Shown: in pieces, positions 6,269-32,988 of the stretch
Numbering within the stretch: the first letter of the stretch is position 1
Layout of the letters: every line of letters begins with the position of its first letter
NCBI RefSeq assembly: GCF_003018255.1
Contig: NZ_CP027440.1
DNA length: 64,000 nucleotides
Direction: 5' to 3' (one strand)
Source of the DNA: Escherichia coli
Lineage (GTDB): Bacteria > Pseudomonadota > Gammaproteobacteria > Enterobacterales > Enterobacteriaceae
Position numbers and translations under genes: made by a program
The notes under the pieces: model-generated
What the model was told of the DNA's origin: nothing
Seen by the model: the letters and a program-made list of their open reading frames with translations, nothing else
Databases searched by the model: none

Positions 6269-7219
6269 TTAATCGTCTTCTTCGTCATCCAGTTCAACGG
6301 GTGTCTGATACTGGTCAGGTTTAATGACCAGCAGGTCGCAGCGAAGATGATCAATCACCTGTTCCGCCGTGTTACCAAGGAATGCTGCTGAAATACCGGT
6401 GCGTCCGACCGTGCCCAGAACCACAATCCCCGCCTGTAAGTGCTCCGCCAAATCAGGAATCACCTCTTCTGGCAGACCTTTTTCTACGTGCGTCATGTTT
6501 TCATTAATGCCGAATTTCTGCCGCAGGGCTTTCATTGCCAGCAAATGTTGCCCACGAATGGCATCGTTATAAACGCTCGGATCAAATTCCGGCAGTTCAA
6601 TCGCGATATTAATTGGCGTTACCGGATAAGCGCCAACCAGATGAACTTCGGTATGGTTGACTTGTTCCGCCAGTTCGATCGTCTCTTTGACCAGTTTTTC
6701 ATTGAGCGCATTATGATACGGCTCTTCACTGGCGAGATTCACCGCCACCAGCGCCTTACCCCCTTCCGGCCACGGCTGGTCTTTCACCATCCACACGGGG
6801 CTTGGGCATTTGCGTAACAGATGCCAGTCCGTTGGCGTAAAAATCACCGCTTCCAGACGGTCATGTTGGTGCGCCATTTTTAGCACCAAATCGTGCCCGC
6901 CGCTGATCACTTCCTGAATGATGGCTTCGAAAGGACGGTTATGCCAGACCACTTTAATTTCAATGGGAACGCCAGCATTGAGATAATATTTTGCCTGCTC
7001 GTGGATCCAGGCTGTACGCTGGCTGATGACGCCCTGACGCATAGCGGTACGTTCGTCCGGGGAGAGCAGGGTGGTCATTTCGTATGAGAAGTCATAGATC
7101 GGCAAAAAGGCTTTAATTTTGCCACCAATCCGTTGATGTAAATAAACAGCTCGCCGCAATGCTGGTTGGTCGTCCTGGTTAGGATCGATAACAACGAGCA
7201 TGTTCTGATACATAGCCAT
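6269..7219 (-). CDS. uspE: universal stress protein E (tandem Usp domains)
   Basis: ORF 6269..7246; start at [10 protein letters not shown] gives 316 aa; GGAGAC ribosome-binding site upstream. Confidence 0.9.
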
Positions 7220-28952: not shown

Positions 28953-29810
28953 CTAATTGGGTGATAACAGATCCTGTGTATGGGAGTTTCCCTTTGTGCG
29001 TGCGTTGATGCTGGTAACGGTAAACGTCATGATGAACACGACCGCGAATAAGACGACAATCGTCGGAGCTGGTGCGCTGTCGATAAAAAAGGACAACCAG
29101 ACACCAGTCATTGACACTATTACCGATATGCCAGTCGCCAGTAGGAGCGCAATATGAAAGCGTTGTGTCAGGAGTACCGCAATGGCGCCAGGCGCTATGA
29201 GCAGAGAAATGGAGAGAATGATACCTACCGCTTTCAGCGTCGCCACAATGGTCAGAGAGACCATGCACAGCAGCCCATAATGCAGCCATCTCGTATGCAA
29301 ACCGCTTACCTGCGCCTGTTGATAATCAAAGCTGAACAGCAAAAAATCCCGCCATTTTACGCTAATAACAAGTGTAACCAGCCCGGCAATAATCATCGTC
29401 TGGATTATATCGCCGATGGTTATCCCGAGCATGTCGCCGAAAAGAATATGGTCAAGATGTACGTCTGGTTTGACTGCAATATACAAGATCAGACCTGCGG
29501 CAAACATGCCAGAAAAAACAATCCCCATCACTGTATCTTGCTTGATTCGGCTGTTGTCTTTCAGGTATCCCGTCGCCACCGCGCAGAATACTCCGGCGAC
29601 GAATGCCCCTGTAGCTAAAGGTAACCCCAGAATCCAGGCAAGCACGATGCCAGGAAAAACTGCATGACTCATCGCGTCACCCATCAGTGCCCAACCTTTC
29701 AGGACCAGAAAGACCGACAGCAGCGCACAGGGTATGGAAACTACCAGTGAAATCAGCAGTGCGTGACTCATAAAGGTGAACTGCAGTGGCTCCAGTAATA
29801 ATGCCATCAT
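28953..29810 (-). CDS. sitD: Mn/Fe ABC transporter permease SitD
   Basis: 285 aa integral membrane permease; last gene of the four-gene operon; overlaps sitC by 4 bp. Confidence 0.9.
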   Translation of the reverse strand: MMALLLEPLQFTFMSHALLISLVVSIPCALLSVFLVLKGWALMGDAMSHAVFPGIVLAWILGLPLATGAFVAGVFCAVATGYLKDNSRIKQDTVMGIVFSGMFAAGLILYIAVKPDVHLDHILFGDMLGITIGDIIQTMIIAGLVTLVISVKWRDFLLFSFDYQQAQVSGLHTRWLHYGLLCMVSLTIVATLKAVGIILSISLLIAPGAIAVLLTQRFHIALLLATGISVIVSMTGVWLSFFIDSAPAPTIVVLFAVVFIMTFTVTSINARTKGNSHTQDLLSPN

Positions 29811-30664
29811 GAGCGATCCTCCAGCGCCTTATGCGCACGCCGACGATTTGCCAAAAGCCCATGGGTGGGCGCAAAGACAAATGCTAAAAGAAACAGCAGT
29901 GTCTGCGCCACCACGATGATTCCACCTGTCGCGCCGTCCAGAAAGTAACTGACCCACGAGCCGAGGAAACTGGTTACACTGCCAATAGTTACAGCAATCA
30001 TGAGCAGGCGGGGAAAACGATCGGTTAACAACCATGCTGTTGCACCGGGAGTCACCACCAGACAGATCACCAGAAAGGCACCAACCGTTTGCAGCGCCGC
30101 AACGGTCGAAACCGACAGCAGGGTGAAGAAGAGGAGTTTTAATCTGCCCGGATGCAATCCAATAGCACGGGCGTGATTCTCGTCGAAAAAGGTCACCATA
30201 AGATCTTTCCATTTGAAAAAAAGCACGATGATCGAGAGAATGCCAATGATAGTGAGTTGCAGGATATCCGCCGGATCGATTGCCAGAATATTGCCCAGGA
30301 CGATGGTCTGAATGTTCACAGATGTCGGGTTCAATGACACCATAAACAGCCCCAGGCCAAAAAAGGATGAGAAGATCAGGCCGATGATGGCATCTTCTTT
30401 TAAGCGGGTGCGTTGGTTAAGAAACAGCATGCTGCCCGCAGCCAGTCCGCCGGAAAAGAAGGCTCCCAGAGAAAACGGAAGCCCCAGCATATATGCTCCC
30501 GCAACACCCGGGACAATAGAGTGCGACAACGCATCGCCAATCAGCGACCAGCCTTTTAGCATCAGATAGCATGACAGGAAAGCGCAGAGACCGCCGACCA
30601 TCGCCGAGACCCACATCGCATTGAGCATATATTCATAGCTGAAGGGTTCCAGTAGCACGTTCAT
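29807..30664 (-). CDS. sitC: Mn/Fe ABC transporter permease SitC
   Basis: 285 aa permease paralogous to SitD; 4-bp overlaps on both sides. Confidence 0.9.
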
Positions 30665-31488
30665 CTTTCTTCCCTCTGCACCGCTGACGGTCGATGAGCC
30701 ACAAAAGGGCGTTCATCGTCAGTAATAATGCTTTCTTCCGAGCCGTTAAGTGTGACATGGCGCAGTACGCCGCTAAAAGCCAGCTCCAGGTTCTCGGCTG
30801 TAAAAGTGGTGTCTGTCGGCCCGCTTGCCAGGACGGTGCCTTTGACCATGACCGTATAATCGCAAAATGTCGTGACGGATCCGAGATTGTGTGTTGAGAC
30901 AAGCATCGTTTTGCCTTCCGCGCGTAACTCCCTCAACAGGCTGATGATTTTGGCTTCGGTTTTCACATCAACGCCAGTAAAAGGTTCATCCAGCAGGATC
31001 ACATCACCCTGCTGTGCAATCGCTCTCGCCAGAAAGACGCGTTTCTTTTGTCCACCGGAAAGCTCGCCGATTTGTCGATGGCGAAAATTCACCATATCGA
31101 CACGTTCCAGCGCATCGGTGACAATTTGACGATCCCTCTTTTTGGCGATACGCAACATACCCATATGCCCATAGCGGCCCATCATCACCACATCTTCCAC
31201 CAGTACAGGAAATGACCAGTCAACCTCTTCTGACTGAGGGACGTAGGCAACCAGGTTTTTCTGTAACGCCTGTCGCGTGGGAATACCCAGAACAGATATC
31301 TTTCCGCTGGTCAGACGCACAAATCCCATAATCGCTTTAAACAACGTCGATTTTCCGGAACCGTTTACCCCAACCAGAGCGGCAATAGATCCACTTGGTA
31401 CTGTGAAGGATGCATCGCGCAGTGCTGTGTGCCCGTTACGCCAGGTGACAGTAACATCATTAACGACAATGCCTGCAGATTGCATCAT
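30661..31488 (-). CDS. sitB: Mn/Fe ABC transporter ATP-binding protein SitB
   Basis: 275 aa with Walker [13 protein letters not shown] signature LSGGQKKR and Walker B ILLDEP. Confidence 0.9.
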
Positions 31489-32402
31489 TATTTCTCCCTT
31501 TTCCCGGCTTTAATTCCCTGTACCAGCGTACTGGTAGTAACCTTAAGAAGGTCGATATACGTCGGTACCGGGCCGTTTTCTGTGCTCAGGGAATCGACAT
31601 AGAGCACACCGCCGTAGTGTGCGCCGGTTTCACGCGCAACCTGACGCGCTGGTTTATCGGAAATCGTACTCTCGCTAAAGACTGCCGGGATATGATTTTT
31701 CTTAACTATATCAACAACCTTACGTACCTGTTGCGGTGTTCCTTGTTGATCGGCATTAATCGGCCACAGATAAAGCTCTTTTAGCCCCAAATCGCGTGCG
31801 AGATAAGAAAAAGCCCCTTCACTGGTGACCATCCACCGCTGATTCTCAGGGAGTTCCGTAATCTGCTTACGCAGGGGGGCAAGGGTTTGGGTAATCTTGG
31901 CTTTATAAGTATCGGCATTACGTTGGTAGGTTTGTGCATTAGCGGGATCGTATTTTATCAACGCATCACGAATATTATCGACGTAAATCAGAGCATTATC
32001 TGGCGACATCCATGCATGGGGGTTAGGTTTGCCCTCATAGGGGCCTTCGGTGATCCCTACTGGCGTCACACCCGAAGAGACAATTACTTCTGGAACCCCA
32101 TTGAGATGCTGGTAAAAGCGTTGGAACCACAATTCCAGATTCATACCATTGGCGAGGATCAGTTGTGCCCCCTGCGCACGTTTAATATCGCCAGGGGTAG
32201 GCTGATACTCATGAATTTCTGCACCGGGCTTGGTTATGGATGAGACTTCTGCAGCATCTCCAGCCACGTTTTTGGCCATATCCGCGATGATGGTAAATGT
32301 TGTAATGACCTTGAATTTTTCAGTTGCACTTGCCTGAAATGCGATCGAGCAGGTGAGGGCGAGGCACCCCAAGAGCATGGTTACTTTTTTTATTGAGTGC
32401 AT
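31488..32402 (-). CDS. sitA: periplasmic Mn/Fe-binding protein SitA (cluster A-I substrate-binding protein)
   Basis: 304 aa with signal peptide; first gene of the operon; 1-bp overlap with sitB. Confidence 0.9.
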
Positions 32403-32434: not shown

Positions 32435-32456
32435 AAACATAGCAACGGCTATGTTT
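32435..32456. promoter_or_regulatory. MntR box (perfect palindrome AAACATAGC-N4-GCTATGTTT) in the sitA promoter
   Basis: Perfect 9-bp inverted repeat 33 bp upstream of the sitA start; matches the MntR operator consensus as I recall it. Confidence 0.65.
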
Positions 32457-32477
32457 TATAGCACAACCTATACAAAA

Positions 32478-32496
32478 TGAAAATGATTATCATTAA
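32478..32496. promoter_or_regulatory. Fur box in the sitA promoter
   Basis: TGAAAATGATTATCATTAAC matches the GATAATGATAATCATTATC Fur consensus at most positions. Confidence 0.6.
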
Positions 32497-32610
32497 CAAC
32501 TTTGTGGCCCAAAACAGGGATTAGGTTGTTTCCTGCTGGCGACATGGTATTGAGGAAAAAAGCAGGGCAGCTATTAGGCTTTGAAATGACTTTATGAGGA
32601 AAATTTTTGA

Positions 32611-32655
32611 TGGCAAAAATGGGGCAAAACGCTGTAGAAGGGGCAAAAAAGGGGC
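32611..32655. repeat. three direct GGGGCAAAA(A) repeats in the prophage arm next to attR
   Basis: GGGGCAAAAC ... GGGGCAAAAAA GGGGCAAAAAAA; two similar copies lie at 19019-19038 next to attL. Confidence 0.6.
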
Positions 32656-32763
32656 AAAAAAAGAGTGGATTATCGTAGCTTATTGTTGTCGCTGATAATG
32701 TTTAACATATTGAAAAATAAATAAAATACTTATGAGTCAGATAGTTGTGATTTTTGCCCTTAC

Positions 32764-32813: not shown

Positions 32814-32988
32814 TTAAAAGCGACTCAATTCGTTATATGGCATCAGAAGAGTATGCGTCATGCCGGAACGCCCAGCATAAGAAATCTGATATAAAAACTG
32901 TGGCGTGTATGGTACGGATTAGAGGGGAAAATGTCAGCACATTTGCGAAATGAATCAAAAAGCCCGCAGCAATGTGCGGGCGTTAGTG

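Follow-up and report, generated by a model that had tools for sequence, protein, structure and literature searches.

Among the closest described systems is the mntH promoter of Escherichia coli K-12, which Patzer and Hantke reportedly found in 2001 to be under dual repression by Fur and MntR. Its MntR palindrome, AAACATAGC-AAAG-GCTATGTTT, has the same half-sites as the palindrome (box 2) upstream of sitA in the E. coli DNA analysed here. The order of the elements is also the same, with a Fur box (-68), an MntR box (-34) and then the ATG, and in both promoters two shared regulators are placed over an Mn2+ importer. The promoters differ in the gene-strand spacer of the palindrome (AAAG in mntH, CGTT in sitA), in the gap between the Fur and MntR boxes (15 nt in mntH, 22 nt in sitA) and in the lack at mntH of a recognisable second palindrome in register. 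Furthermore, sit is a mobile module, unlike the core gene mntH.

Salmonella Typhimurium carries the orthologous sitABCD operon, although in SPI-1 rather than at a prophage edge as in our case. Ikeda et al. are said to have reported in 2005 that Salmonella sit is repressed by Fur, mainly in response to Fe, and by MntR, mainly in response to Mn, and that each repression is lost when the respective putative site is mutated. A Salmonella sitA-lacZ fusion is repressed by both Fur and MntR and derepressed in fur and mntR mutants, and it becomes independent of sigma-S only when both fur and mntR are lost (PMC8970401). Salmonella sitA is also 53.8 fold up in a fur mutant (PMC3212961). A review describes SitABCD as repressed by MntR in Salmonella and Shigella (PMC3852070), and repression of sitABCD by both MntR and Fur is stated for Salmonella, Shigella and E. 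coli (PMC3852070; PMC8970401). Dual Fe/Mn control of sit by Fur and MntR is already known.

Within E. coli, direct evidence for Fur comes from strain CFT073. There the orthologous motif GCTAATGATAATCATTTTC (1450227-1450245) contains the summit of a Fur ChIP-seq peak at 1450244 (height 526, cutoff 19.5), and sitB, sitC and sitD rise 20, 16 and 8 fold, respectively, in a fur mutant (PMC7157518). That study covered Fur but not MntR. From the Fur box to the ATG, the CFT073 sitA promoter differs from ours by one base, located in the Fur box (GCT.. versus GTT..). The CFT073 sit genes lie near an icd-associated island, whereas those studied here lie beside uspF. Moreover, CFT073 sitA is a frameshifted pseudogene (locus L085, 3215-4151) whose promoter block is nevertheless intact and bound by Fur, whereas our sitA is intact. 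A ChIP-exo study of nine strains assigns sitABCD to the Fur regulon in two pathogenic ones (PMC10164565), and low-iron media induce a plasmid-borne sitA 18-84 fold (PMC3438092).

A third relevant promoter is that of K-12 mntS, which is overlapped by two MntR palindromes (-97 and -78) lying 19 bp apart centre to centre, the same offset as that of the two boxes upstream of sitA. According to Shi et al., this spacing equals the cooperative spacing of Bacillus subtilis mneP (bioRxiv 10.1101/2024.06.28.601288). It has been proposed that mntS derived from the 5' end of sitA (bioRxiv 10.1101/2023.06.02.543501). This origin is consistent with the near-identity between the strong mntS box, TAATATAGCCTGTGCTATATCT, and AAATATAGCCTGTGCTATATCT, which is box 1 in the sitA promoter of Enterobacter cloacae. 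The mntS promoter appears to have been inherited from sitA as well, except that a second MntR site takes the place of the sitA Fur box. At mntS there is no Fur box above 8 bits, whereas in the sitA promoter studied here it is one member of the MntR pair that is degenerate.

We identified an intact sitA gene (31488..32402, minus strand; 304 aa), encoding a periplasmic metal-binding protein, in the window, by which we mean the whole stretch of 64,000 nucleotides (64 kb) that was analysed. On the same strand are intact ORFs for sitB (30661-31488), sitC (29807-30664) and sitD (28953-29810). Because the ORFs overlap or abut, we consider sitB, sitC and sitD (together 28953..31488) part of the regulated operon, and because the operon is on the minus strand, its promoter was sought above position 32402. 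SitA shares 99% identity with a large E. coli SitA cluster carrying Pfam domain PF01297, and the gene is named sitA in the annotation of the identical strain E. coli AR436, to which a 341-nt stretch around the operators is 100% identical. The gene order in AR436 is nifJ (ydbK), ompN, uspF, sitA, sitB, sitC, sitD, an MFS transporter gene and prophage tail-fibre genes. In this E. coli chromosome, sitABCD is placed between uspF and a Rac-like prophage.

The window from position 1 to about 28000 is prophage, with genes for a P22-type capsid, terminase, a minor head protein, tail fibre and tail-fibre assembly. The sitABCD genes and the MFS transporter gene are found just past the tail-fibre genes, at the prophage edge beside uspF; the counterpart position in K-12 is the end of Rac (ynaM, ydfK, pinR). 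In a comparison with K-12/DH1, homology is limited to query positions 1-117, which correspond to 32604-32720 of the window, and backbone homology therefore starts at 32604. The DNA upstream of the Fur box that moves with the sit module (32498..32603, minus strand) has its outer boundary between about 32540 and 32604. Four GGGGCAAAA-like units (GGCAAAAATGGGGCAAAA / GGCAAAAAAGGGGCAAAA, 30 bp apart) were seen at 32612-32660, between uspF and the sit module; this repeat stretch belongs to the K-12 backbone and lies outside the module.

Read on the plus strand, positions 32435-32456 contain AAACATAGCAACGGCTATGTTT, two perfectly inverted 9-nt arms separated by 4 nt (9-4-9); on the gene strand (minus) the sequence is AAACATAGC-CGTT-GCTATGTTT. 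This predicted MntR operator, box 2, ends 32 nt before the ATG at 32402, with its near edge 33 bp from the A of that codon, and is the element that an earlier note on this DNA had correctly described as a perfect palindrome with an AACG spacer 33 bp upstream of sitA. When the window was searched for the palindrome pattern with up to three mismatches, one match was found against 0.02 expected from shuffles. We also built an MntR matrix from four K-12 (MG1655) sites, those of mntH and mntS and the two of mntP. Box 2 scores 29.0 bits with this matrix, which is effectively the maximum, and it heads the 64-kb window, the next position reaching 13.3 bits. Its half-sites, which recur unchanged in the K-12 mntH palindrome, fit the inverted-repeat form AAACATAGC-N4-GCTATGTTT perfectly, in line with the MntR-box-like character that the note had assigned to it. 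The second-best match, at 2272-2293, is inside the prophage terminase small-subunit gene and, at 13.3 bits, was treated as probably due to chance.

Box 2 is kept in E. coli sit variants and in other genera. The mntR gene is located outside the window and was found in 5421 of 5426 complete E. coli genomes, and is thus a core gene. We found no documentation of MntR binding at the E. coli sitA promoter in the literature searched, which consisted of papers other than the primary sitA and mntH operator studies, and a full-text search with the half-site string matched unrelated primers only. The matrix rank, the half-sites and the conservation support the assignment of 32435-32456 as the MntR operator of sitA, at which we infer occupancy by MntR.

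Upstream of box 2, the 13-mer AATGATTATCATT at 32482-32494 forms the core of a 19-mer at 32479-32497 that reads GTTAATGATAATCATTTTC on the gene strand and agrees with the Fur consensus GATAATGATAATCATTATC at 17 of 19 positions. The Fur-box-like element of the earlier note is therefore real. The note gave a distance of about 20 bp; the 13-mer lies 25 nt beyond the palindrome, and the full Fur box is 22 bp upstream of box 2. With up to three mismatches to the 19-mer, the sole matches in the 64-kb window are this same site on both strands, against 0.03 expected. In addition, TGATAATCATTTTCA fits the 7-1-7 Fur form TGATAATnATTATCA with one mismatch. A Fur matrix was constructed from 12 ChIP-supported CFT073 motifs (Table S5B, PMC7157518), with sitA excluded. 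The box scores 25.5 bits with this matrix, which ranks it first of approximately 128,000 positions, and 10 of the 12 training sites have lower self-scores; the next unrelated site reaches 16.3 bits. The scoring with Fur and MntR matrices that the note had proposed as a check thus ranks each site first in the window, well above what chance would give.

A weaker Fur match of 14.9 bits overlaps the box 6 bp downstream (32473-32491) and is probably the pattern expected of a Fur array, extending toward the promoter. The second-best Fur-like match elsewhere, at 6605-6623 (16.3 bits), is between two prophage head genes and was also treated as a probable chance occurrence. The matrix rank and the consensus match support 32479-32497 as a Fur operator, and in vivo occupancy by Fur is known from the orthologous CFT073 site described above.

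A scan of all -35/-10 pairs upstream of sitA gave, as the best sigma-70 candidate, a pair with 9 of 12 matches and a TG extension. The predicted -35, TTTTCA (4/6), is at 32478..32483 on the minus strand and is itself a modest promoter match; all but one of its six bases fall within the Fur box. The predicted extended -10, TGcTATAAA (TATAAA, 5/6), follows after 17 nt at 32455..32463 on the same strand, and TGTGCTATA is kept in most relatives. This -10 falls in the right half of a degenerate MntR-like repeat (box 1, below), and its last two bases are also the first two of box 2. A stricter promoter scan returned no candidate between the two boxes; it skipped this one because the -10 ends in A, whereas the scan requires T at position 6. 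Transcription is predicted to start at about 32447-32449, so that the leader would measure about 46 nt. That the operators overlap the -35, -10 and +1 is a prediction depending on a modest hexamer match, in which the -35 contributes only 4/6, and the position of the promoter is to be read accordingly.

Given this arrangement, we propose that Fe2+-Fur would bind the near-consensus box at 32497-32479, probably out to 32473, and cover the predicted -35, while Mn2+-MntR would bind the perfect palindrome at 32456-32435 and cover the end of the predicted -10 together with the predicted start. Box 1 would hold the promoter spacer and the predicted -10; it (32475-32454) may recruit a second MntR dimer cooperatively, or may merely be a relic. 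Since Fur would cover the -35 and MntR the end of the -10 and the start, either repressor alone should block RNA polymerase, and the operon would therefore be on only when iron and manganese are both scarce. We are highly confident that this region provides the cis-regulation of sitABCD, an iron/manganese ABC importer, with Fur and MntR operators over its predicted promoter. The dual Mn/Fe control logic of sit and mntH, which the note had held to be preserved, appears to be intact here, as indicated by the presence of both operators directly upstream of an intact sitABCD and by the MntR and Fur repression stated in the literature (PMC3852070; PMC8970401).

To compare this arrangement across relatives, species-representative genomes were scanned with SitA, which gave enterobacterial loci at 73-87% protein identity in Enterobacter, Lelliottia, Pluralibacter, Shimwellia, Citrobacter, Cedecea and Erwinia, followed by Rhizobiales and others. 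Salmonella SitA was absent among the closest relatives returned by the genome scan and a protein search (Enterobacter, Lelliottia, Pantoea, Citrobacter, then Rhizobiales). Across 21 loci from seven other enterobacterial genera, the order Fur box, MntR box, ATG is kept in most sitA promoters, and the promoters examined have an ATAGC-N4-GCTAT palindrome in the corresponding position. In most of them a Fur-like box is followed after 3-4 nt by MntR-type palindromes, which end 19-41 nt before the ATG. The palindrome is weak in Erwinia persicina and Pantoea sp. 1.19, where we also detected no clear Fur box.

An anchored alignment of 19 promoters was used to calculate the information content per position. 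The two MntR palindrome cores carry 1.76 and 1.73 bits, the Fur 19-mer 0.84 bits and the palindrome spacers 0.43-0.52 bits, compared with 0.45 bits downstream of the boxes and 0.22 bits upstream of the Fur box. Among E. coli sequences, conservation extends across the entire 5' UTR at the level seen in the boxes, and is therefore not specific to them.

In the relatives, MntR palindromes occur as an adjacent pair spaced 19 bp centre to centre, and the copy that is near consensus varies by lineage. A strong palindrome occupies the box 1 position in Enterobacter, Lelliottia, Cedecea, Erwinia and others. Specifically, E. cloacae scores 27.4 bits at box 1 and 11.4 bits at box 2, and Cedecea sulfonylureivorans 29.0 and 16.6 bits; the two are almost equal in Enterobacter sp. 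BIGb0383 (21.6 and 21.0 bits). Citrobacter has 1-7 bits at box 1 and 25.7 bits at box 2, and the E. coli promoter of the window has 2.1 and 29.0 bits. The earlier description is incomplete rather than wrong, in that the ancestral layout suggested by these motifs comprises one Fur box and two adjacent MntR boxes. It had mentioned neither the minus-strand orientation of the gene and promoter nor the degenerate MntR-like repeat between the two elements. The apparent spacer between the Fur box and the palindrome in fact holds the decayed box 1 and the predicted -10.

Several further features of the relatives were observed. A conserved TTAACCA motif is found about 20-27 nt downstream of box 2 in the leaders of Enterobacter, Lelliottia, Pluralibacter, Shimwellia and Citrobacter (loci L005-L012, L014, L017 and L018); the E. 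coli sitA leader is without it and has TTTTGCTCAC in its place. The nearest SitA relatives after Enterobacterales (70-76% identity) are from Rhizobiales and some Pseudomonas, with upstream regions that are without the MntR palindrome. Two Rhizobium sitA-like loci (L021 and L022) keep a Fur-like palindrome, and in these no MntR-type palindrome was detected, the best match having 7-8 mismatches. The distribution of these motifs suggests horizontal spread of the transporter with replacement of regulator sites.

Box 1 (32454..32475, minus strand) reads TTGT-ATAGG-TTGT-GCTAT-AAAA on the gene strand, with a 9/10 core match. It overlaps box 2 by 3 nt, and its core (32458-32471) is offset by 19 bp, centre to centre, from that of box 2 (32439-32452). 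Some E. coli sit variants have a perfect box 1 core, ATAGC-TTCT-GCTAT in a plasmid form and ATAGC-TTAT-GCTAT in strain LH50-c. Box 1 of the window may be either a relic or a weak cooperative MntR site. We give an even chance to the reading in which MntR acts through the perfect palindrome only, ATAGG-N4-GCTAT being a non-binding relic whose right half is kept solely as the -10. The score of box 1 in the MntR matrix, about the 45th best position in the window, compares with 24-29 bits for the known K-12 sites, and a 9/10 core match is not rare by itself, as five such matches were found in the window against 1.55 expected. Within E. coli the left half is free to vary (ATAGG, ATTGC, ATAGC), whereas the right half, GCTATAAAA, is invariant, which also favours a relic. 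However, box 1 is in the exact 19-bp register of the strong palindrome of the relatives and of the second site of K-12 mntS. In addition, B. subtilis MntR fills weak sites at 19-bp spacing through dimer-dimer cooperativity (bioRxiv 10.1101/2024.06.28.601288), and a consensus neighbour could for this reason load the weak box 1.

We tentatively advance a broader proposal, which we think has less than an even chance of being right. The sitA promoters of Enterobacterales would form a conserved unit of a Fur box, 3-4 nt and two MntR palindromes at the cooperative 19-bp spacing, with the consensus copy being lineage-specific (downstream in E. coli and Citrobacter; upstream in Enterobacter cloacae, Cedecea and Erwinia). 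The weak, -10-bearing box 1 of E. coli would still be loaded by cooperativity, sharpening the response to Mn. In the window promoter the 19-bp spacing is present but only one of the two sites is recognisable as an MntR site, and because box 1 fails the matrix test we do not class this promoter as a paired operator. No description of a paired MntR arrangement at sitA was found in the literature searched, which consisted of papers other than the primary sitA studies, and the arrangement may already be described in the latter.

It is also possible, although we would not rate it as probable, that oxygen and growth phase also act on the operon (via ArcA/Fnr, sigma-S and possibly OxyR), using the 40-100 bp that precede the Fur box; such inputs would add to the dual-repressor reading. 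A C preceding the -10 is favoured by sigma-S, and the predicted -10 has this base (gCTATAAA). The 40-100 bp or so upstream of the Fur box are common to E. coli sit modules in differing genomic contexts. Sigma-S induces Salmonella sitABCD, counteracting both repressors (PMC8970401), and Shigella flexneri sit is repressed by anaerobiosis (review PMC3852070). On the other hand, no additional motif was found in this upstream interval, and this DNA is not conserved between genera (0.22 bits).

An RNA-level role of the palindrome, as an attenuator or terminator in the sitA leader or as the terminator of uspF rather than a protein site, is very improbable and was rejected: a terminator scan does report it on the minus strand as a 9-bp stem with a 4-nt loop followed by GTTCTAATTT, but the hairpin contains only three G-C pairs and its T tract is poor, the leader is no more stably folded than shuffled sequence (z = -0.48) and matches no Rfam family, uspF has its own G+C-rich terminator at 32962-32981, and the predicted start lies inside the palindrome, so that the full hairpin would not be transcribed. 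Moreover, the arms are kept in sequence beyond mere pairing and are the same as at the unrelated mntH promoter, while the loop varies, which argues for protein recognition rather than an RNA hairpin.

Of 5426 complete E. coli genomes, 1635 contain the 71-nt operator block at no less than 90% identity. The sit module occurs in at least five contexts, always with the block: beside uspF, beside a GNAT gene, next to a plasmid IS1, by a transposase fragment and in the vicinity of the CFT073 icd-associated island. Variants from five different E. coli contexts have the region between about -140 and the ATG in common. In the sit promoter of a ColV-type plasmid (strain D10), 2 nt are deleted, relative to the chromosomal form, from the interval separating the Fur box and box 1. 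The same promoter has a perfect box 1 core (ATAGC-TTCT-GCTAT), one box 2 mismatch (AAACATAGT) and a better -35-like sequence, TTTACA. Given these differences between the plasmid and chromosomal promoters, two paralogous sit copies in ExPEC/APEC may differ in their response to Mn.

The understanding of metal regulation is unchanged by these results. What they add is modest: the conserved pair of MntR boxes with lineage-specific decay, which is mildly new, and the predicted overlap of operators and promoter. They may be of use for annotation and for predicting expression under metal restriction in the host. The sit operon is an accessory, virulence-associated metal importer that is intact in the strain studied here and comes with its own switch. 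Approximately 140-200 bp of upstream DNA moves with the sit genes, wiring them into the core Fur and MntR circuits of the host wherever they are inserted.
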